44,371 nucleotides of DNA, taken from Escherichia phage 6949. Shown piece after piece: positions 3,128-37,079 of this stretch. The notes under the pieces are model-generated. The model made no database searches, had not been told where the DNA came from, and saw only the letters and a list, made by a program, of their open reading frames with translations. Positions within the stretch are counted from its first letter, which is position 1. Each line of letters begins with the position of its first letter. The stretch is from the sequence record OL362273.1; one strand, written 5' to 3'. The position numbers and the translations under genes are program-made.

Positions 3128-3464
3128 TAAATACTTCAAGCGTAAAGAGTTTGCTTGCCGTTGTGGCTGCGGTACATCCACTGTTGATGCTGAATTACTA
3201 CAGGTAGTCACAGATGTGCGTGAGCACTTTGGTTCTCCTGTAGTTATCACTTCTGGGCACCGCTGTGCTAAGCACAATGCTAATGTAGGAGGAGCTAAGA
3301 ACTCCATGCATCTTACTGGTAAGGCTGCTGACATTAAGGTGTCTGGTGTTGGCCCAATGGAGGTGCGTGCATACCTCTGCAATAAATACCATGATAAGTA
3401 TGGTATTGGTGCTTATCCTACTTTTACCCATATCGACGTTAGAGATAACAAAGCAAGATGGTAA
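3120..3464 (+). CDS. Endolysin, peptidase M15-like zinc peptidoglycan peptidase
   Basis: The 114 aa translation carries SGHRC.KHN..VGG...S.H..G.A.D and FTHIDVRD motifs, which fit the H/D/H zinc-binding pattern of M15 family peptidases. It sits in the lysis region. Confidence 0.7.
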   Translation: MLNKYFKRKEFACRCGCGTSTVDAELLQVVTDVREHFGSPVVITSGHRCAKHNANVGGAKNSMHLTGKAADIKVSGVGPMEVRAYLCNKYHDKYGIGAYPTFTHIDVRDNKARW

Positions 3465-3572
3465 GATGCATTGAATGGTGTGAACGCATGGTTGCTAAGG
3501 CTTCAGAGGAAGGTAATTATGAAGATTGGCAGAACTACTCAACTTTATTAGCACAATGGAAAGGGAGGTGCA

Positions 3573-4140: not shown

Positions 4141-6039
4141 ATGGCTAAATTAACCAAACCTAATACTGAAGGAATCTTGCATAAAGGACAATCTTTGTAT
4201 GAGTACCTTGATGCGAGAGTTTTAACATCAAAGCCGTTTGGTGCTGCAGGTGACGCCACTACTGATGATACGGAGGTTATAGCTGCTTCATTAAACTCTC
4301 AGAAAGCTGTCACAGTCTCAGATGGTGTATTCTCTAGCTCTGGTATTAATAGTAATTACTGTAATTTAGACGGTAGGGGCAGTGGCGTGCTAAGTCACCG
4401 TTCCAGTACAGGTAACTACTTAGTATTTAACAATCTACGTGCAGGTCGCTTAAGTAATATTACGGTAGAAAGTAATAAGGAGACTGATACAACTCAGGGA
4501 CAGCAGGTATCTCTTGCTGGTGGAAGTGATGTTACTGTAAGTGACGTTAACTTCTCAAACGTTAAAGGTACTGGTTTCAGTTTAATCGCATACCCTAATG
4601 ATGCGCCACCTGATGGACTTATGATTAAAGGCATTCGAGGTAGCTATTCAGGCTATGCTACTAATAAGGCAGCCGGATGCGTACTTGCTGACTCCTCAGT
4701 TAACTCCCTCATAGATAACGTCATTGCTAAGAACTACCCTCAGTTCGGAGCAGTAGAGTTGAAAAGTACAGCCAGTTACAACATAGTCAGTAATGTTATA
4801 GGGGCAGATTGCCAGCATGTAACTTACAACGGCACTGAAGGGCCAATAGCCCCTTCTAATAACCTTATCAAGGGGGTGATGGCTAATAACCCTAAGTATG
4901 CAGCGGTTGTTGCAGGCAAAGGAAGTACGAACTTAATCTCAGACGTGCTCGTAGATTACTCAACTTCTGATGCTAGGCAGGCTCATGGTGTTACCGTAGA
5001 AGGGTCTGATAACGTCATAAATAATGTGCTTATGTCAGGATGTGATGGTACTAACTCTTTAGGACAAGGGCAGACTTCTACAATTGCACGCTTTATAGGT
5101 ACAGCTAATAACAACTATGCGTCTGTATTTCCTAGCTACAGTGCTACAGGTGTTATTACTTTCGAATCCGGCTCTACCCGTAACTTCGTAGAGGTAAAGC
5201 ACCCTGGCAGGAGAAACGACCTTCTCAGTTCTGCTAGTACTATTGACGGTGCAGCTACTATTGACGGCACTAATAATAGTAACGTAGTGCACGCACCTGC
5301 CTTAGGGCAGTACATAGGTAGTATGTCAGGTAGGTTCGAATGGCGGATTAAGTCCATGTCACTCCCTTCAGGAGTTCTTACTTCTGCTGATAAGTACAGA
5401 ATGCTTGGGGATGGTGCTGTATCATTAGCTTTAGGTGGGGGTACTTCTTCTCAAGTTCGCCTATTTACTTCTGATGGTGCTTCTCGGACAGTGTCCCTCA
5501 CCAACGGTAACGTGCGTCTTTCTACCAGTAGCACAGGCTATTTGCAGTTAGGTGCTGATGCAATGACCCCAGATAGTACTGGTACATACGCATTAGGTTC
5601 CGCCAGTCGAGCATGGTCTGGCGGTTTTACTCAAGCAGCATTCACTGTTACCTCAGATGCTCGGTGTAAAACAGAACCTCTTACTATCTCAGATGCCTTA
5701 CTGGATGCTTGGTCTGAAGTTGACTTTGTGCAGTTTCAGTATTTGGATCGTGTTGAGGAGAAGGGTGCAGACTCAGCTAGATGGCACTTCGGTATCATCG
5801 CTCAGCGAGCTAAGGAGGCTTTCGAACGTCACGGTATAGATGCACATCGCTATGGCTTCTTGTGCTTCGACAGTTGGGATGATGTATACGAGGAAGATGC
5901 CAATGGCTCTCGTAAACTGATTACACCAGCAGGTTCCCGCTACGGTATTCGTTACGAGGAAGTACTGATATTAGAGGCTGCGTTGATGCGGAGGACTATC
6001 AAGCGTATGCAGGAAGCACTAGCTTCCCTGCCTAAGTGA
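4141..6039 (+). CDS. Tailspike 1: beta-helix depolymerase with C-terminal intramolecular chaperone (peptidase S74-like) domain
   Basis: ATG 4141 follows RBS AGGAGA; the track start at 4081 is a TTG. The C-terminus carries SDARCK and HFGIIAQRAKEAF motifs, which are typical of auto-cleaving chaperone domains of endosialidase and K5-lyase type tailspikes. A phage promoter lies upstream and a terminator downstream. Confidence 0.8.
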   Translation: MAKLTKPNTEGILHKGQSLYEYLDARVLTSKPFGAAGDATTDDTEVIAASLNSQKAVTVSDGVFSSSGINSNYCNLDGRGSGVLSHRSSTGNYLVFNNLRAGRLSNITVESNKETDTTQGQQVSLAGGSDVTVSDVNFSNVKGTGFSLIAYPNDAPPDGLMIKGIRGSYSGYATNKAAGCVLADSSVNSLIDNVIAKNYPQFGAVELKSTASYNIVSNVIGADCQHVTYNGTEGPIAPSNNLIKGVMANNPKYAAVVAGKGSTNLISDVLVDYSTSDARQAHGVTVEGSDNVINNVLMSGCDGTNSLGQGQTSTIARFIGTANNNYASVFPSYSATGVITFESGSTRNFVEVKHPGRRNDLLSSASTIDGAATIDGTNNSNVVHAPALGQYIGSMSGRFEWRIKSMSLPSGVLTSADKYRMLGDGAVSLALGGGTSSQVRLFTSDGASRTVSLTNGNVRLSTSSTGYLQLGADAMTPDSTGTYALGSASRAWSGGFTQAAFTVTSDARCKTEPLTISDALLDAWSEVDFVQFQYLDRVEEKGADSARWHFGIIAQRAKEAFERHGIDAHRYGFLCFDSWDDVYEEDANGSRKLITPAGSRYGIRYEEVLILEAALMRRTIKRMQEALASLPK

Positions 6040-25244: not shown

Positions 25245-26244
25245 GCTTCGCAGCTTGTACAAAGACTCCGAGGTACTTGATGCAATCGAGCAAGCTACCG
25301 ACGAGAAAGGTAATGTTAATTACAATGAGATGGCACGTGTATTATCGTGTCACCCTGTGGGTAAGAAGATTACCCGCCAGTTGGCTCGATACTGGCATGG
25401 TCAATTCAAGAAGACCAAGAAGAATGGTGATTATTACCAGACCCTTCTGCAAGAAGATAAGCGTATCAAAGAAGAGCGTAAGCTCAGGACTCCTGACCGC
25501 TACGAGGATTTGGCTATTGTGCCATTGCCTGACTCGCCTCATCGAAGTGTACTGGTGATCCCTGATACTCATGCACCTTATGAGCACCCAGATACCCTAG
25601 AGTTCCTTGCAGCCGTGGCAGCACGTTACCGTCCAGACACAGTGGTACACCTAGGAGATGAGGCAGACAAACATGCCTTGTCATTCCACGATTCGGACCC
25701 AAATCTGGATAGTGCTGGAATGGAGTTAGAGAAGGCTCGTATCTTCATGCACAAATTGCACAAGATGTTCCCTGTGATGCGCCTATGTCACTCCAACCAC
25801 GGCTCTATGCACTTCCGTAAGGCAAGCGCCAAGGGTATTCCAGTGCAATATCTTCGCACCTACCGTGAAGTCTTCTTCCCAAATGGAGGTGGCGACCAGT
25901 GGGATTGGCAGCATACACATGTTCTTGAGTTGCCGAATGGCGAACAGGTGGCATTCAAGCATCAACCTGCTGGCTCTGTCCTAGCAGATGCAGCGCATGA
26001 GCGTATGAACCTTGTGTGTGGTCACTTGCACGGTAAGATGTCTGTGGAGTACGCACGTAATACACATGAACAGTATTGGGCTGTGCAAGGTGGCTGCTTA
26101 ATTGATGAGTCATCCCGTGCATTTGCCTATGGGCGTGAGTCTAAATACAAGCCAGCATTAGGTTGTGTGGTTATTCTGGAGGGTGTACCTCATATTGTCC
26201 CGATGCAAACCAATAGCGACAACCGTTGGATTGGCAAGATTTAG
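25237..26244 (+). CDS. Calcineurin-like metallophosphoesterase
   Basis: The ordered motifs are PDTH (DxH), HLGDEAD (GDxxD), SNHG (GNH-like) and GHLHG (GHxH). I prefer the TTG start at 25237 because it follows RBS AAGGAGGT; the longer track ORF from 25105 overlaps the endonuclease VII gene. Confidence 0.7.
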   Translation: MGKLRSLYKDSEVLDAIEQATDEKGNVNYNEMARVLSCHPVGKKITRQLARYWHGQFKKTKKNGDYYQTLLQEDKRIKEERKLRTPDRYEDLAIVPLPDSPHRSVLVIPDTHAPYEHPDTLEFLAAVAARYRPDTVVHLGDEADKHALSFHDSDPNLDSAGMELEKARIFMHKLHKMFPVMRLCHSNHGSMHFRKASAKGIPVQYLRTYREVFFPNGGGDQWDWQHTHVLELPNGEQVAFKHQPAGSVLADAAHERMNLVCGHLHGKMSVEYARNTHEQYWAVQGGCLIDESSRAFAYGRESKYKPALGCVVILEGVPHIVPMQTNSDNRWIGKI

Positions 26245-26261
26245 TTGACACTATAGAACAA
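26239..26261 (+). promoter_or_regulatory. SP6-type phage promoter
   Basis: ATTTAGTTGACACTATA followed by GAACAA, which is very close to the canonical SP6 promoter. Confidence 0.8.
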
Positions 26262-26849: not shown

Positions 26850-27023
26850 ATGGAAGGTAAACTGTATAGAGGGTACTTCGGTAACTTATATAAAGTAAGC
26901 TCTCGCGGTTTTGTATTGACCTCTGATGATGAAGGTGCAATGTGGCACCTAAGTGCATATGGTTCTAACTTAGCACACTTTAAAGAGGCAATAGTCAAAG
27001 GTGTGATGAAGGAGGTGAAATGA
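26850..27023 (+). CDS. Small hypothetical protein (57 aa)
   Basis: ATG 26850 is coupled to the upstream stop and is in frame within track ORF 26832-27023. Confidence 0.45.
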   Translation: MEGKLYRGYFGNLYKVSSRGFVLTSDDEGAMWHLSAYGSNLAHFKEAIVKGVMKEVK

Positions 27024-27967
27024 ACATCTTCCAATTCCTAGGTCTTCCAGAAGACCACCGCAATCATCCATTCATGCTGGTGAAGCATCGCGGTGAAGTT
27101 CCTGAGAAGAAATTAACTTTTCCATGTTATGCACAGGTGAAACGAGATGGAATATTCAGTGCTGTTGTGGTGCGTAATGATGGTGTTGTTGCCATCTTTG
27201 GTCGTACTGGTAAGAAGCTCGCAAATGTTGAAGCCTTGGAAAAGACATTTAGTGTATTTCCTGTCGGGTTGTATCTTGGTGAGTTGCAATCTATGGCTGT
27301 TGATGTTTATCTTGAAGCTCTGTCAGGAGTGGTAAACCCTAATCGTACAGAGCCACTTGATTTCATAGGGCAGCAGATTAAAGACAACCTATATATCGAC
27401 TTCTTCGATATGTTAACCATTAAGGCATTCCATGATGGATTCACTGATGTTTCTTATCTCAAACGTTACGATGCTTTACATCGTCGCATCGGCACTCATC
27501 TTAGCGGGTACAACGCTATTCTTCCTATTACTCCTTGCCATAATGAGCGAGAGGTTGAAGCGTTTGCTCAAGAGCAAATAGATGCAGGCAGAGAAGGTGC
27601 GGTATTTAAACTTGACGTGGAGTACGAAAGTGGGCACAAGGGCTATCGTCAAACGAAGATTGTTCGTATGGTATCTTATGACCTCACCTGCATTGGGTGG
27701 GAGGAAGGAAAAGGTAAGTATAAAGGTAAAGTAGCTAATTTAATCTTTAAATGGAAAGGTGGTAAGTCCGTTAAGGCTATGCTGGGGCGTGGCTGGTCAC
27801 ATGAGGATGCAGCACAGATGTATCACGATATTAAGCACGGTGGCGAACTAAACGTCATTGGGAAAATCTTCGCTGTTAAGGCGTTACAGGAATCTAGTAA
27901 GGGAGTCCTGAGACTCCCCAAGGTTTCTGAACTTAGGTTTGATAAGGAAGTCCCTGATGTCTTCTAA
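27020..27967 (+). CDS. ATP-dependent DNA ligase (T7 gp1.3-like)
   Basis: RBS AAGGAGGTG precedes the ATG. The adenylation motif I is present as KRDG (AQVKRDGIFSAV), together with EGAVFK. The size fits phage ligases. Confidence 0.9.
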   Translation: MNIFQFLGLPEDHRNHPFMLVKHRGEVPEKKLTFPCYAQVKRDGIFSAVVVRNDGVVAIFGRTGKKLANVEALEKTFSVFPVGLYLGELQSMAVDVYLEALSGVVNPNRTEPLDFIGQQIKDNLYIDFFDMLTIKAFHDGFTDVSYLKRYDALHRRIGTHLSGYNAILPITPCHNEREVEAFAQEQIDAGREGAVFKLDVEYESGHKGYRQTKIVRMVSYDLTCIGWEEGKGKYKGKVANLIFKWKGGKSVKAMLGRGWSHEDAAQMYHDIKHGGELNVIGKIFAVKALQESSKGVLRLPKVSELRFDKEVPDVF

Positions 27968-28442
27968 TCCAAATTATCGAAAACCACCTCGTACACCGCC
28001 AAGACCACTTGCCTACTGTCCTTTTACTGGAAAGCTTTTCCGTAAGTTCAAAGATGGCTGGAGAGAAACAGGACTTAGCAGAAAGAGTGATGGATATTTA
28101 CAGTATAAAGTCGATGGTAAGACTGTAAGTGTTCATGTTTTAGCAATGAATATGATGGGTTATGACACTACCGGCTTTACAGTAGATCACATAAATCATA
28201 TACGCTGGGATAATAGGTTTATTAATCTACGTCTACTATCTCATAAAGATAATTGTTTAAATAGAGAGGCGATACATACAAGTAAGCTGCCGAGTGGTAA
28301 CTACAGAGCGCGATGTGGAAATGTTCATCTTGGCGTATTTGAGGATAAGTTACTTGCTCGTGGTGCTATCCTATGGTATCGCCATAGGAGATTTAATAAT
28401 GTTAAATTCAATGAAGGCAACGCGTGCCGTAGAAGTAGCTGA
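27957..28442 (+). CDS. HNH homing endonuclease
   Basis: The motif SVHVLAMNMMGYDTTGFTVDHINHIRWDNRFINLRLLSHKDN is an HNH signature. The ORF overlaps both neighbours, as a compact insertion would. Confidence 0.8.
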   Translation: MSSNPNYRKPPRTPPRPLAYCPFTGKLFRKFKDGWRETGLSRKSDGYLQYKVDGKTVSVHVLAMNMMGYDTTGFTVDHINHIRWDNRFINLRLLSHKDNCLNREAIHTSKLPSGNYRARCGNVHLGVFEDKLLARGAILWYRHRRFNNVKFNEGNACRRSS

Positions 28443-28593
28443 AGCTATATTTGAAACTTTATCCTGTGGCATGGAAGTGCCATATACTTTACTGGCTGAT
28501 GCAGAAGAACTTGGTCTTTCTGTAGAAGCTATCCAAGAGAAGGTTGACGAATTATATGGTACAGACGAAGAAGAAACCGACGATTTCATTTGA
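28399..28593 (+). CDS. Small acidic hypothetical protein (64 aa)
   Basis: RBS AGGAG lies 8 nt upstream of ATG 28399. The C-terminus is acidic (EEETDDFI). The 5' end overlaps the HNH gene. Confidence 0.45.
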   Translation: MLNSMKATRAVEVAEAIFETLSCGMEVPYTLLADAEELGLSVEAIQEKVDELYGTDEEETDDFI

Positions 28594-28597
28594 AGGA

Positions 28598-28726
28598 ATG
28601 GAGATGCTTGAGATGATTCTCAAGCCTTCTTCTCCTAAGGTGACTAAGACTCATGAAGAGTTAATCGTTGATGAGGTTAAGCGTTACATCATGGATTGTG
28701 TCAGAGCACAACTGGTGATCCAATGA
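28598..28726 (+). CDS. Small hypothetical ORF (start uncertain)
   Basis: Several in-frame ATGs (28598, 28604, 28613) lie near a GAAGGA/GGAG RBS. The stop overlaps the GNAT start (ATGA). Confidence 0.3.
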   Translation: MEMLEMILKPSSPKVTKTHEELIVDEVKRYIMDCVRAQLVIQ

Positions 28727-29184
28727 TACGTCCAGCTTCCTTCCTAGATATTCCTGAGATTATAAACCTTGGGAATAAATATGTGGAAGAGGAAGTCAAG
28801 GTTGTAGCCCACCACTCAGCCTCATGGAATGCAGAACAAAGTGCACATAACCTTTGTGCATCTCTTAGTAGAGAAGATTTATTCCTATGGGTTGCTGTAG
28901 ATGAAGGGCAGATTGTAGGGTTCCTGTGGGCTGGCTATCACGAGTTGGCCCCTTGGACACCTGTAAGAGTTGCCTCTGACATTCTCTTTTATATTATACC
29001 AGAGAGGCGAGGAACACTTCTTGGTATGCGTCTCATCAAAGCCCTAAAGCAATGGGCTAGTGATAATGAATGCTCTGAGGTTCGCCTGTCTATCGCCTCT
29101 GGTATTAATGAAGAACGTGTCGGACGTATGTATAAGCGACTTGGCTTTGAACCGTTTGGCACTGTGTATAACATGAAGTTCTAA
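28723..29184 (+). CDS. GNAT family N-acetyltransferase
   Basis: The acetyl-CoA binding motif A is present (QIVGFLWAG ... RRGTLLGMRLIKALKQWA), followed by the RLGFEP motif. ATG 28723 is coupled to the upstream stop. Confidence 0.72.
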   Translation: MIRPASFLDIPEIINLGNKYVEEEVKVVAHHSASWNAEQSAHNLCASLSREDLFLWVAVDEGQIVGFLWAGYHELAPWTPVRVASDILFYIIPERRGTLLGMRLIKALKQWASDNECSEVRLSIASGINEERVGRMYKRLGFEPFGTVYNMKF

Positions 29185-29193
29185 GGAGATAAC

Positions 29194-29403
29194 ATGGGTG
29201 TTGTAAAGAAAGCATTTAAGGCTATCGGTCTTGCTCAAGATGCACCACGTATTGAAGCCAAAGTACCAGCACAGCAGCTTGAGCGTAAGCCTGAGACTGA
29301 AGCTGAAGATATTCAAATTGGTGCAGGTGGTGATGATGCGACTGCATCTGCAAAAGGTAAGCGCGGCCTTGTCCGTCCGGTAGCTTCTAGCTTGAAGGTG
29401 TAA
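29194..29403 (+). CDS. Small Gly/Ala-rich protein upstream of portal (possible minor virion protein)
   Basis: RBS AAGGAG precedes the ATG. It is position-equivalent to the small head proteins of T7 (the 6.7/7.3 region). The assignment is by position only. Confidence 0.45.
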   Translation: MGVVKKAFKAIGLAQDAPRIEAKVPAQQLERKPETEAEDIQIGAGGDDATASAKGKRGLVRPVASSLKV

Positions 29404-31875: not shown

Positions 31876-31882
31876 TTCAGTA

Positions 31883-31905
31883 TTTACTGGACACTATAGA
31901 AGGGA
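31883..31905 (+). promoter_or_regulatory. SP6-type phage promoter for the capsid gene (phi10 analog)
   Basis: ATTTACTGGACACTATA followed by GAAGGG, with the predicted +1 G at 31900. A leader stem-loop GGGAGAA-AAG-TTCTCCC follows at 31902-31918. Confidence 0.85.
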
Positions 31906-33163: not shown

Positions 33164-33171
33164 CACCTATG

Positions 33172-33207
33172 CCCTATCTACCTTGCGTAGGTAGGGTTCT
33201 TTTTGTT
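33172..33207 (+). terminator. Intrinsic terminator after the capsid gene (T-phi analog)
   Basis: The 9 bp stem CCCUAUCUA / UAGGUAGGG (one G-U pair) encloses a 7 nt loop and is followed by TTCTTTTTGTT. Confidence 0.7.
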
Positions 33208-33217
33208 AGGAGGATTC

Positions 33218-33955
33218 ATGCCTGTAATTAGACAAACCAGTAAATTAGGACATATGATGGAAGATGTGGCCTTCCAGATTATTGATAGTAAGCTGGAAGC
33301 GGTAAACTTGTGTATGCGAGCTATTGGTCGTGAGGGTGTGGATTCCCTCGACTCAGGGGACTTGGACGCAGAAGATGCAAGCAAAATGATCGACATCGTA
33401 TCCCAGCGGTTCCAGTACAACAAAGGAGGTGGCTGGTGGTTCAATCGTGAACCAAACTGGCAACTTGCACCAGACACTAACGGTGAAGTTAATTTACCTA
33501 ACAACTGCCTAGCAGTATTGCAGTGTTATGCTTTAGGTGAAAAGAAAGTACCTATGACTATGCGAGCAGGTAAGCTCTACTCTACTTGGAGTCACACCTT
33601 TGATATGCGTAAGCATGTTAATGCTAATGGTATGATTCGTCTTACCTTACTCACCTTACTACCCTACGAGCATCTACCTACAAGTGTAATGCAGGCTATT
33701 GCCTATCAAGCTGCTGTAGAGTTTATTGTGTCTAAGGATGCAGATCAGACTAAGCTAGCCACTGCGCAGCAGATAGCCACTCAGCTTCTTATGGATGTAC
33801 AATCTGAGCAAATGTCACAGAAGCGATTAAACATGCTGGTACATAACCCTACTCAGCGTCAGTTTGGTATCATGGCTGGTGGCTCTCAGAATGTACCTGC
33901 TTACTCTCATTCACCTTATGAGAGTTGGGCGCTCCGTCCGTGGGAGGATCGTTAA
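33218..33955 (+). CDS. Tail tubular protein A (T7 gp11-like)
   Basis: ATG 33218 follows RBS AGGAGG. It is coupled to the next gene through TAATG. Confidence 0.8.
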   Translation: MPVIRQTSKLGHMMEDVAFQIIDSKLEAVNLCMRAIGREGVDSLDSGDLDAEDASKMIDIVSQRFQYNKGGGWWFNREPNWQLAPDTNGEVNLPNNCLAVLQCYALGEKKVPMTMRAGKLYSTWSHTFDMRKHVNANGMIRLTLLTLLPYEHLPTSVMQAIAYQAAVEFIVSKDADQTKLATAQQIATQLLMDVQSEQMSQKRLNMLVHNPTQRQFGIMAGGSQNVPAYSHSPYESWALRPWEDR

Positions 33956-36357
33956 TGGAAGTACAAGGTTCATTAGGTAGACAAATCCAAGGGATTAGCC
34001 AGCAGCCGCCAGCGGTACGCTTGGATGGTCAGTGCACAGCTATGGTTAATATGATACCTGATGTAGTGAATGGTACTCAATCACGCATGGGTACAACTCA
34101 TATTGCAAAGATACTTGATGCGGGGACTGATGACATGGCTACCCATCATTATCGCAGAGGTGATGGTGATGAAGAGTATTTCTTCACGTTGAAGAAAGGA
34201 CAAGTTCCTGAGATATTTGATAAGTATGGGCGCAAATGTAATGTGACTTCACAAGATGCACCTATGACCTACCTCTCTGAGGTTGTTAATCCAAGGGAAG
34301 ATGTGCAATTCATGACGATAGCTGATGTTACTTTCATGCTTAATCGTAGGAAAGTAGTTAAAGCTAGTAGCAGTAAGTCACCTAAAGTTGGAAACAAAGC
34401 CATTGTGTTTTGTGCGTATGGTCAATATGGTACATCTTATTCCATTGTAATTAATGGGGCCAACGCTGCTAGTTTTAAAACACCGGATGGTGGAAGTGCA
34501 GACCATGTTGAACAAATTCGAACTGAACGTATCACTTCTGAATTGTACTCTAAGTTGCAGCAATGGAGCGGTGTGAGTGACTATGAAATACAAAGAGACG
34601 GTACTAGTATATTTATCGAGAGACGGGATGGTGCTAGCTTTACAATAACAACCACCGATGGTGCAAAAGGTAAGGACTTAGTGGCTATCAAGAATAAAGT
34701 TAGCTCTACTGACCTACTCCCTTCTCGTGCGCCTGCTGGTTATAAAGTACAAGTGTGGCCTACTGGCAGCAAACCTGAGTCTCGTTACTGGCTGCAAGCT
34801 GAGCCTAAAGAGGGAAACCTTGTGTCTTGGAAAGAAACAATAGCTGCTGATGTATTACTTGGGTTTGATAAAGGCACAATGCCTTACATTATTGAACGTA
34901 CAGATATCATCAACGGCATAGCTCAATTCAAGATAAGACAAGGTGATTGGGAAGATCGTAAAGTAGGGGATGACTTGACTAACCCTATGCCCTCTTTTAT
35001 TGATGAGGAAGTACCCCAGACAATAGGTGGAATGTTCATGGTGCAGAACCGCCTATGCTTTACAGCAGGTGAAGCGGTTATTGCTTCTCGTACATCCTAC
35101 TTCTTCGATTTCTTTCGTTATACGGTTATCTCTGCATTGGCAACTGACTCCTTTGATATTTTCTCAGATGCTAGTGAAGTCTACCAGCTAAAACATGCAG
35201 TGACCTTAGATGGCGCTACCGTGTTGTTCTCTGATAAGTCACAATTCATACTGCCAGGCGATAAGCCTTTAGAGAAGTCAAATGCACTGCTTAAGCCTGT
35301 TACAACATTTGAAGTGAACAATAAAGTGAAGCCAGTAGTAACTGGTGAATCGGTAATGTTTGCCACTAATGATGGTTCTTACTCTGGTGTACGAGAGTTC
35401 TATACAGACTCTTATAGTGACACTAAGAAGGCACAAGCAATCACAAGTCATGTGAATAAACTCATCGAAGGTAACATTACCAACATGGCAGCAAGCACCA
35501 ATGTCAACAGGTTACTTGTCACTACCGATAAGTATCGTAACATAATCTACTGCTACGATTGGTTATGGCAAGGAACAGACCGTGTACAATCAGCATGGCA
35601 TGTATGGAAGTGGCCTATAGGTACAAAGGTGCGAGGTATGTTTTATTCTGGTGAATTACTTTACCTGCTCCTTGAGCGAGGAGATGGCGTGTATCTGGAG
35701 AAGATGGACATGGGTGATGCACTAACCTATGGTTTGAATGGCCGCATCAGAATGGATAGGCAAGCAGAGTTAGTCTTCAAGCATTTCAAAGCAGAAGATG
35801 AATGGGTATCTGAGCCGCTCCCTTGGGTTCCTACTAACCCAGAACTTTTAGATTGCATCTTAATCGAGGGTTGGGATTCATATATTGGCGGCTCTTTCTT
35901 ATTCAAGTACAACCCTAGTGACAATACTTTGTCTACAACCTTTGATATATATGATGACAGCCATGTAAAAGCGAAGGTTATTGTTGGTCAGATTTACCCT
36001 CAAGAGTTTGAACCTACGCCTGTGGTTATCAGAGACAATCAAGACCGTGTATCCTACATTGATGTACCAGTTGTAGGATTGGTTCACCTTAATCTTGACA
36101 TGTACCCCGATTTCTCCGTAGAAGTTAAGAATGTGAAGAGTGGTAAAGTACGTAGAGTATTAGCGTCAAACCGTATAGGTGGTGCTCTCAATAATACAGT
36201 AGGCTATGTTGAACCGAGAGAAGGTGTCTTCAGATTTCCACTGAGAGCTAAGAGCATGGATGTTGTTTATCGTATTATTGTAGAGTCACCTCACACATTC
36301 CAGCTTCGTGATATTGAGTGGGAAGGGAGCTACAATCCAACCAAAAGGAGGGTCTAA
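33955..36357 (+). CDS. Tail tubular protein B (T7 gp12-like)
   Basis: The N-terminus LGRQIQGISQQPPAVRLDGQ carries the GISQQP motif seen in T7 gp12. The size is about 800 aa. Confidence 0.85.
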   Translation: MEVQGSLGRQIQGISQQPPAVRLDGQCTAMVNMIPDVVNGTQSRMGTTHIAKILDAGTDDMATHHYRRGDGDEEYFFTLKKGQVPEIFDKYGRKCNVTSQDAPMTYLSEVVNPREDVQFMTIADVTFMLNRRKVVKASSSKSPKVGNKAIVFCAYGQYGTSYSIVINGANAASFKTPDGGSADHVEQIRTERITSELYSKLQQWSGVSDYEIQRDGTSIFIERRDGASFTITTTDGAKGKDLVAIKNKVSSTDLLPSRAPAGYKVQVWPTGSKPESRYWLQAEPKEGNLVSWKETIAADVLLGFDKGTMPYIIERTDIINGIAQFKIRQGDWEDRKVGDDLTNPMPSFIDEEVPQTIGGMFMVQNRLCFTAGEAVIASRTSYFFDFFRYTVISALATDSFDIFSDASEVYQLKHAVTLDGATVLFSDKSQFILPGDKPLEKSNALLKPVTTFEVNNKVKPVVTGESVMFATNDGSYSGVREFYTDSYSDTKKAQAITSHVNKLIEGNITNMAASTNVNRLLVTTDKYRNIIYCYDWLWQGTDRVQSAWHVWKWPIGTKVRGMFYSGELLYLLLERGDGVYLEKMDMGDALTYGLNGRIRMDRQAELVFKHFKAEDEWVSEPLPWVPTNPELLDCILIEGWDSYIGGSFLFKYNPSDNTLSTTFDIYDDSHVKAKVIVGQIYPQEFEPTPVVIRDNQDRVSYIDVPVVGLVHLNLDMYPDFSVEVKNVKSGKVRRVLASNRIGGALNNTVGYVEPREGVFRFPLRAKSMDVVYRIIVESPHTFQLRDIEWEGSYNPTKRRV

Positions 36358-37079
36358 TGGCTATAGGTTCAGCCGTTATGGCTGGTATGTCTTCTATTGG
36401 TAGCATGTTTGCAGGCAGTGGTGCAGCAGCCGCTGCTGGAGGTGCTGCCGCAGGTGGCGGAGGTTTGCTAGGTTCACTAGGTGGATTCCTAAGTGGCTCT
36501 ACTGCTGGTTTCTCTAATGCTGGCCTTCTTGGTGCTGGCCTTCAAGGGTTAGGCTTGATTGGTGATCTATTTGGTGGAAGTGATGAAGCCAAGGCGATGA
36601 AGAAAGCACAAGAAGAGCAATGGCGGCAGCAGCTTATTGCTACACAAGAGGCGTACAAGACAGTGGCAGACGCAGAACGTTCTGCTGCTAAACAATATCA
36701 TGCAGATGCAATCAGTAATCAGGCTTCACTGCTACAGCAGCGAGCACAGGTTGCATTACTTGCTGGGGCTACTGGTACTGGTGGTAATTCTGTGTCCTCT
36801 ATGCTTAATGACTTAGCAGCAGATGGCGGCAGGAACCAGAGTACTATCATTGATAACTATGAGAATCAGAAGATTAATTTCACCAACCAGCTTAAGTCTA
36901 TCCAACGTGGTGGTCAGATGCAGATGCGTGAGTTTAAGAAGCCTTCTGCTATGAATACCTTGGTTAAAGGTATTCCAAGTCTGGCATCTGCCTATGTAAC
37001 TGGTAGTAAGTCTGGCAAGGCATTGGGTAAAGTCTTAACTGATTCTCGCACATATTCATCTGGAACAAGAGGTATTTAA
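36357..37079 (+). CDS. Internal virion protein (small, Gly-rich N-terminus)
   Basis: RBS AAGGAGGG precedes the ATG, which is coupled through TAATG. The protein has a Gly/Ala-rich N-terminus and a helical C-terminal half. Confidence 0.65.
   Translation: MAIGSAVMAGMSSIGSMFAGSGAAAAAGGAAAGGGGLLGSLGGFLSGSTAGFSNAGLLGAGLQGLGLIGDLFGGSDEAKAMKKAQEEQWRQQLIATQEAYKTVADAERSAAKQYHADAISNQASLLQQRAQVALLAGATGTGGNSVSSMLNDLAADGGRNQSTIIDNYENQKINFTNQLKSIQRGGQMQMREFKKPSAMNTLVKGIPSLASAYVTGSKSGKALGKVLTDSRTYSSGTRGI

Follow-up and report, generated by a model that had tools for sequence, protein, structure and literature searches.

Among the small GNAT acetyltransferases that podoviruses encode close to their portal genes, the one that has been studied experimentally is Rac, the RNA polymerase alpha cleavage protein of phage LUZ19 (gp28). 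Rac is toxic when expressed alone; it leads to a cut in the RNAP alpha linker at Gln244-Glu245 together with a global rise in lysine acetylation, its effect is lost when the predicted acetyl-CoA pocket is mutated, and no cleavage of alpha is seen in vitro (PMC7552054). Phage LKA1 carries a GNAT homologue at the same position and leaves alpha intact (PMC7552054). An acetyltransferase gene is also present in the Zobellviridae, where Hardies et al. (2016) classified it as non-structural, and the same authors reported that T7 gp13 (IVP-A), which is encoded at the same position in T7, also matches acetyltransferases (PMC4819975). Upstream of the portal gene of T7 (gene order 6.7, 7, 7.3, 8), the place between gp6.7 and gp7.3 is taken by gene 7, which encodes 133 aa and is annotated "host range". 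T7 gp7.3 is present in six copies at the adaptor-nozzle junction, where it touches the DNA end; it is ejected at infection, and particles without it do not adsorb (PMC11784390). Like gp6.7, gp7.3 is a small protein of the virion that enters the cell by ejection at infection and is sensitive to proteases there; the N-terminal part of gp7.3, which is unresolved, is positively charged (PMC11784390). Finally, K1-5 gp27 (YP_654128), K1E gp27 and SP6 gp28 bear the RefSeq label "acetyltransferase"; no functional study of any of the three was found in the literature searched.

Here we analysed a 44,371-nucleotide stretch of DNA from Escherichia phage 6949 (sequence record OL362273.1), referred to as the window, in which a preliminary description had placed a GNAT acetyltransferase gene between the replication and structural modules. 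The open reading frame at 28723-29184 proved to be exactly as described, with its ATG at 28723, its TAA at 29182-29184 and a product of 153 aa, and both peptide blocks singled out in that description lie where it had placed them, RRGTLLGMRLIKALKQWA at residues 95-112 and RLGFEP at residues 139-144 (nt 29137-29154). Over the 2 kb around the gene, identity is 99.3% to Escherichia phage EEc2 and 98.4% to K1-5, and all strong matches of this stretch are to Vectrevirus (Autographiviridae, Molineuxvirinae), so that the window comes from a coliphage of the K1-5/K1E type. Copies of the GNAT that are 100% identical occur in phages EC120 and PDP21P6. At the same position, the K1E gp27 copies are 95.4% and 97.4% identical to the window protein and SP6 gp28 is 74.5% identical, while K1-5 gp27 shows 86% identity by tblastn and 99% once a 22-aa duplication is set aside. 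No difference of substance separates the window GNAT from these three orthologues. The gene is already known and annotated, and the GNAT finding is correct but ordinary; what the present analysis adds is comparative context. The features of the locus are collected in Table 1.

Table 1. Features of the acetyltransferase locus and of related parts of the window
Feature	Position	Strand	Remarks
Promoter-like sites, SP6/K1-5-type, core GACACTATAGAA[GC]	2375, 4039, 16556, 17247, 21497, 23106, 26239, 31882	+	
Nearest upstream phage-RNAP promoter-like site, ATTTAGTTGACACTATAGAAC	26239..26259	+	3 mismatches to query pattern
ATP-dependent DNA ligase	27020..27967		
HNH_3 homing-endonuclease ORF	27939..28442	+	Insertion relative to K1-5 and most relatives; outside GNAT module
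60-aa acidic ORF, K1-5 gp25 homologue, PHROG 5860	28411..28593	+	Overlaps HNH upstream and gp26 downstream
56-aa ORF, K1-5 gp26 homologue, PHROG 6507	28556..28726	+	Stop overlaps GNAT start
GNAT N-acetyltransferase CDS, 153 aa, PHROG 1249	28723..29184	+	ORF list, Pfam, PHROG, AlphaFold2, dN/dS
Motif A and helix alpha3, RRGTLLGMRLIKALKQWA, residues 95-112	29005..29058	+	Predicted acetyl-CoA pyrophosphate-binding loop; SSAT2 and family alignments
SIASGINEERVGRMYKRLGFEP, residues 123-144	29089..29154	+	beta5-alpha4 loop, helix alpha4, L-G-F block
69-aa gp7.3-like ORF (gp28), PHROG 1320	29194..29403	+	Shine-Dalgarno overlaps GNAT stop
Portal (head-tail connector), 516 aa	29405..30955	+	PF12236, E 1.2e-87
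Next phage-RNAP promoter-like site, 5' of major capsid gene	31882..31902	+	Pattern search
Strong terminator-like hairpin, 11 bp stem then T-run	33171-33197	+	Directly after major capsid gene
Tubular tail B	33925..36357		
First internal virion protein, PHROG 805	36318..37079		

A 66-nt tandem duplication lengthens the deposited K1-5 GNAT to 175 aa, all other relatives having about 153 aa. In NC_008152 the duplication lies at about 3398-3529 of the locus extracted from that genome (corresponding to about 28808-28873 of the window) and contains a 37-nt exact repeat at a spacing of 66. It adds 22 aa to the alpha1-alpha2 acceptor-site loop, is absent from all other relatives, and is either a lesion of the laboratory strain or an indication that growth in culture does not require the gene.

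The assignment to the GNATs rests on several lines of evidence. The protein exceeds the gathering thresholds of three Pfam models (PF00583, 40.6 vs. 20.7; PF13508, 38.1 vs. 27; PF13673, 25.6 vs. 23.6) and matches the PHROG 1249 "acetyltransferase" profile over its full length (E 4.8e-54, residues 1-152). An AlphaFold2 model built from 20 homologues (pLDDT 86.8) has the canonical GNAT topology b1-a1-a2-b2-b3-b4-a3-b5-a4-b6-b7. Motif A, which the preliminary description had called clear, reads R96-G97-T98-L99-L100-G101; its residues R96, G97 and G101 are indeed in place, but the middle Gly of the R/Q-x-x-G-x-G/A consensus is replaced by Leu. Across an alignment of 185 family members, R96 is conserved in 98%, G97 in 90% and Gly or Ala at 101 in 92%, and the fourth position of the motif is variable and never Gly. 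Since CoA is contacted at this position through the backbone, a residue other than Gly is probably tolerated there. In an alignment with human SSAT2, R96, G97 and G101 match the RG.G.G pattern (RGQGIG), N129 aligns with a conserved Asn and Y137 with the catalytic Tyr. N129 is also conserved in the window family, and of the 185 sequences 73% have Tyr and 15% have Phe at position 137. In SIASGINEERVGRMYKRLGFEP a near-invariant S-G-I-N in the beta5-alpha4 loop is followed by alpha4 with Y137 and then by the L-G-F block. Moreover, pairwise dN/dS values of 0.04-0.20 against 22 relatives indicate purifying selection. As judged from these data, the gene is real and under selection and appears to have what an active GNAT needs, its product being a compact single-domain enzyme with apparently intact acetyl-CoA-binding and catalytic positions that is probably active. 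The GNAT reading of the preliminary description is thus backed by profile, fold and conserved residues, and neither of the outcomes that it had named as counting against the reading, a profile comparison pointing to another fold or a lack of the conserved acetyl-CoA-binding residues, was seen.

The preliminary description had left the substrate open among host proteins, virion proteins, aminoglycoside-like small molecules, and tRNA or nucleotides, stating that it could not be read from the sequence, and had proposed a profile search to place the protein in a subfamily. We ran that search, and it assigns no substrate either, all NCBIfam matches being far below cut-off: the models for ArsN1/PAT, AAC(6'), RimI and MshD gave 20-28 bits, where 86-170 or more would be required, with 27.7 vs. 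170 and 24.3 vs. 210 for PAT/ArsN1, a best score of 25.3 vs. 140 for aminoglycoside 6'-N-acetyltransferase and 22.7 vs. 86.4 for RimI (ribosomal protein S18 alanine acetyltransferase). Among structures in the PDB, the best match of the single sequence was a Brucella GNAT (7e-6), with SSAT1/2 and PAT also appearing; with a profile, the best matches were the 1,3-diaminopropane acetyltransferase Dpa (E 1.2e-5) and SSAT2 (1.4e-4), which scored no better than uncharacterised GNATs. The top Foldseek TM-scores, 0.79-0.81, went to PAT, BAR, ArsN and PA4866, in flat rankings in which enzymes acting on proteins and on small molecules (Ard1, Hpa2, Naa60, AAC(6')-Iy) were mixed. No substrate subfamily can be assigned to the window GNAT. 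Its identity to the small bacterial and eukaryotic GNATs PAT/BAR/ArsN1, PA4866, SSAT1/2, Dpa, AAC(6')-Iy and Ard1/Naa is just 14-27%, and its acceptor-site loops (residues 29-36 and 124-129) are specific to the family.

These matches bear on the possibility that the enzyme acetylates a small amine, such as a polyamine or diamine (spermidine, putrescine), an aminoglycoside-like compound or an analogue of an amino acid. The consequence would be an altered pool of cations while DNA is being packaged, or the removal of a toxic inhibitor. The high places of Dpa, SSAT1/2 and PAT in the PDB searches, the leading Foldseek structures and the weak ArsN1 and AAC(6') matches all agree with such a role, and phages that encode spermidine acetyltransferases do exist (PMC9992855). 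However, the curated NCBIfam cut-offs are missed by a wide margin in every case, the fold rankings do not separate small-molecule from protein acetyltransferases, and no SP6-like phage is among the enzymes named in a conservative BLASTP/PSI-BLAST survey of phage spermidine acetyltransferases, which comprised eight confirmed enzymes and one failed candidate (PMC9992855). Further, the conserved coupling of the gene to those of ejection proteins would be left unexplained, and we consider a small-amine substrate unlikely.

GNATs of toxin systems acetylate aminoacyl-tRNA. The window protein might likewise serve in counter-defence, by acetylating aminoacyl-tRNA (cf. TacT/AtaT), nucleotides, a defence signal or a defence protein; the preliminary description had suggested such a role with tRNA and nucleotides as targets, and nothing specific in its favour emerged here. 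The PADLOC defence and toxin models gave no meaningful match (best E 0.015, 12 bits), and the gene, in contrast to accessory anti-defence genes, keeps a conserved core position in phages of several subfamilies and hosts. Its expression, as far as the sequence indicates, coincides with that of late genes, at a time when a block of translation would harm the phage; a counter-defence role is therefore very unlikely.

The family itself is large and uniform. An exhaustive profile search of 1.84 billion representatives returned 1,183 clusters at E<=1e-10, nearly all of about 150 aa. Longer representatives were inspected as a source of fusion partners and rejected, as they are tandem GNATs without an informative partner domain; four distant ones (P0064, P0072, P0074 and P0102) measure 320-385 aa and hold two GNAT stretches each. 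With the window protein as query, tblastn matched 248 phage records, and a scan of 185,579 genomes with two family peptide patterns found no bacterial or archaeal relatives; these patterns being narrow, the scan is only weak evidence for a phage-restricted family. So far, the sequences place the PHROG 1249 family only in podoviruses.

Considering the surroundings of the gene, the local order is metallophosphoesterase, DUF3310, ligase, HNH_3, two small ORFs, GNAT, 69-aa ORF, portal, scaffold and major capsid. The HNH endonuclease named in the preliminary description is real; its ORF shares nucleotides with the 3' end of the ligase gene on one side and with the beginning of the gp25 homologue on the other, and is covered by just 3 of 80 matching records. 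The same description had the GNAT gene lying directly upstream of the portal gene, which needs amending, as the 69-aa gp7.3-like gene stands between them. Its claim of translational coupling, on the other hand, is borne out on both sides, since the GNAT start overlaps the stop of the upstream 56-aa ORF in an ATGA (28723-28726), and the next gene, with its ATG at 29194, has an AAGGAGA Shine-Dalgarno sequence 9 nt upstream of that ATG which extends across the GNAT stop codon. The 69-aa protein has a Lys-rich N-terminus (MGVVKKAFKA) and the C-terminal motif KGKRGL...SSLKV, and it matches PHROG 1320 at E 1.9e-11, the PHROG that T7 gp7.3 matches at 9.7e-30. It shares with T7 gp7.3 an N-terminal MG..KKA.K and a basic C-terminal motif ending in G-L/I-x-V/I; pairwise BLAST of window gp28 against T7 gp7.3, and of gp26 against T7 gp6.7, gave no significant match, and the assignment is based on the PHROG 1320 match and the common C-terminal motif.

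The window contains eight phage-RNAP promoter-like sites, where chance alone would give 0.01. The GNAT gene lies between those at 26239 and 31882, with no further site between the two, and no convincing terminator follows it before 33171; it therefore probably shares a transcript with the ligase gene upstream and the gp7.3-like, portal and scaffold genes downstream. Of the eight sites, that at 26239 deviates most. The hairpin at 33171-33197 has a position analogous to that of T7 Tphi, and scanning the window for Rfam families and tRNA genes returned nothing.

The block of a small ORF, GNAT, gp7.3-like gene, portal and scaffold (followed by promoter and capsid) recurs across the Autographiviridae, usually with start/stop overlaps. 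A PHROG 1249 GNAT occupies the slot in Vibrio phage phi-A318 and Pseudomonas phage uligo (Colwellvirinae), and the arrangement is also found in a 37%-identical IMG/VR metagenomic contig and in Rhizobium phage RHEph15; all small proteins downstream of the GNAT in these blocks have the gp7.3 C-terminal motif in common. The Rac family (PHROG 3986) takes this slot in phiKMV-like and gh-1-like phages. In LUZ19, Axy23, LIMEzero, phiB1_1 and MR8 the slot holds a GNAT of PHROG 3986 instead, and in the T7-like Pseudomonas phages KNP and Lepni01 a PHROG 3986 GNAT sits between gp6.7-like and gp7.3-like genes. The order in LUZ19 is small ORF, Rac, small virion protein, portal, scaffold, promoter and capsid, and Rac, like the window protein a GNAT of about 150 aa, is encoded by a gene whose 3' end overlaps the gene for the small virion protein.

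The relation of the window GNAT to Rac can be seen only at the level of deep profiles. The window protein does not match PHROG 3986, and neither BLASTP nor hhalign with shallow profiles matched it to LUZ19 gp28. When a window-family profile of 185 sequences was compared with a Rac-family profile of 11, hhalign gave E 9.3e-10 over 148 columns (probability 96.5%); of the ORFs in the six reading frames of the window, the Rac-family HMM matched the GNAT alone (E 1e-5), and PHROG 1249 was the only PHROG outside its own family that Rac matched (E 4.9e-4). In a control, however, the window family matched the bacterial PAT-like GNAT 4j3g with hhalign E 3.5e-13, better than Rac. These comparisons indicate that the two families are homologous as GNATs and occupy the same slot. 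Specific orthology to Rac was considered and is not claimed, because there was no direct match and the bacterial control scored better. Further, as the window family is nearer to a bacterial PAT-like GNAT than to Rac or T7 gp7, the common slot could reflect replacement rather than common descent. In the alignment, the beta5-alpha4 segment of the window family stands opposite HR.G.GRYEI.Y, with which the Rac family ends; the Rac family may therefore lack alpha4. A search for Rac homologues in an index of 5.8 billion proteins returned a single, uninformative match. One tblastn match of Rac within the GNAT gene, antisense at 28916-28740 (-) with E 8e-4 and 25% identity over 59 aa, was judged to be due to chance.

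Rac is nevertheless the only experimental precedent for this slot, its effect requiring the acetyl-CoA pocket (PMC7552054). By analogy, the window GNAT could acetylate host proteins (RNAP, protease unfoldases or others) after takeover by the phage RNAP and so turn off host transcription or metabolism. The identical slot of LUZ19 Rac and the profile-level homology described above speak for such an action. Against it, a direct comparison of the two proteins was empty, they fall into different PHROGs, and the window family resembles bacterial GNATs more than Rac. Moreover, the Rac phenotype has been found only in Phikmvvirus on P. aeruginosa, and the intact alpha in infection by LKA1, despite its GNAT homologue, argues that the phenotype is genus-specific even within the Krylovirinae (PMC7552054). 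Nor would a host target explain the tail/internal-virion position of the gene in Zobellviridae. We regard a Rac-like action on host proteins as possible but doubtful, and as the closest rival to the explanation that we prefer.

T7 gp7 also appears to belong in this comparison. It has no Pfam match, but a weak collinear match to the Rac PHROG (E 0.025) is accompanied by hhalign values of 6.7e-3 to the Rac family and 1.3e-2 to the window family, and gp7 resembles the Rac family at its C-terminus and in a D-x-H-[VH]-[GK] signature. The gp7 family was modelled with AlphaFold2 from an 11-sequence alignment; the model has a pLDDT of 90.6 and the topology b1-a1-a2-b2-b3-b4-a3-b5-b6, and motif A is degenerate both in T7 gp7 (NPEADSKG) and in the Ghunavirus KNP (PEAPAGT). 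On the strength of this model and the Rac-family matches, T7 gp7 is predicted to be a GNAT-fold protein without alpha4 and with a degenerate motif A. No paper stating a GNAT fold for T7 gp7 was found in the literature set consulted, which was incomplete. Unlike the window GNAT, T7 gp7 and gp13 are probably both not enzymes. Within the window, no second GNAT-like ORF was found, nor, between tubular tail B (33925..36357) and the first internal virion protein (36318..37079), any ORF of the size of gp13.

That equivalent-slot proteins with a degenerate motif A, as in T7 gp7 and KNP, have been kept, and that T7 gp13 was reported as an acetyltransferase-like internal virion protein (PMC4819975), would suit a mainly non-catalytic role, in which the GNAT fold would help the ejection proteins to assemble, as their chaperone or scaffold, and acetyl transfer would not be needed. 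In the window family, however, R96, G97, Gly or Ala at 101, N129 and an aromatic residue at 137 (Tyr 73%, Phe 15%) are conserved, and the conservation of motif A, N129 and Y137 would be unexpected if catalysis were irrelevant. We therefore hold a mainly non-catalytic role of the window protein to be highly improbable.

The Zobellviridae provide a second context for the same family. The window protein matched SIO1 gp26.2 by tblastn, and gp26.2 in turn matches PHROG 1249 at E 2e-36 and the window family by hhalign at E 1.3e-29. This gene of about 150 aa, in SIO1 and in phiRIO-1-like phages, lies in the virion module immediately ahead of genes for internal or ejected proteins. Its slot differs from that in the window: in Zobellviridae the PHROG 1249 gene follows tubular tail B and precedes IVP-B, in the position of T7 gene 13, and not gp7.3 and portal.

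Keeping in mind that this family or this slot recurs beside ejection or internal virion genes in two podovirus families, we favour, with a probability of roughly one in three, the reading that the window GNAT is a protein N-acetyltransferase that belongs by function with the genes for virion ejection and assembly. The enzyme would act late in infection and use acetyl-CoA to modify, at their N-termini or Lys side chains, small proteins encoded alongside it that are disordered and rich in Lys, namely the gp7.3-like protein here and IVP-B-type proteins in Zobellviridae; alternatively, its target would be a host factor that acts on ejection proteins. The charge, the stability or the assembly into the portal-tail channel of the ejection proteins would thereby be tuned, with consequences for particle infectivity. 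A protein target is our best guess because of the conserved place beside genes for ejected proteins; the gene order of T7-like phages, however, varies so little that being neighbours says little about a link in function. Several other points weigh against the ejection and assembly reading: the literature searched contained no acetylated virion protein of these phages, the Zobellviridae gene has been called non-structural, Rac, as the only slot protein studied experimentally, hits host proteins, and the best PDB profile matches are diamine and polyamine acetyltransferases. This reading and its rivals are not mutually exclusive.

A broader proposal, which we consider rather unlikely, is that GNAT-fold proteins have long accompanied the ejection apparatus of podoviruses and have mostly escaped recognition in this role. 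PHROG 1249 would be an active family, placed immediately ahead of the gp7.3-like gene in SP6-like and Colwellvirinae phages and ahead of IVP-B in Zobellviridae, and Rac, T7 gp7 and gp13 would be diverged or inactivated versions. Active enzymes would then acetylate, and degenerate ones only bind, the disordered, Lys-rich ejection proteins or the host proteases that degrade them, and the RNAP alpha cleavage triggered by Rac would be a side-effect of the same activity.

The gene holds a conserved core position in hundreds of sequenced podoviruses, and some of the SP6/K1-5-type phages are being explored for therapy. The analysis joins the SP6-type acetyltransferase, Rac of phiKMV-like phages and the T7 gene 7 annotated for host range, along with gp13, in a joint context that could help to explain the role of protein acetylation in T7-supergroup infection. 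As a minor observation on the same slot, RHEph15 carries three tandem small ORFs of the gp6.7/gp7.3 type between GNAT and portal (4294-5074 of its extracted locus, L067); two of them start with MCF or MCS, and all end in a basic G-L-x-[LI] motif.
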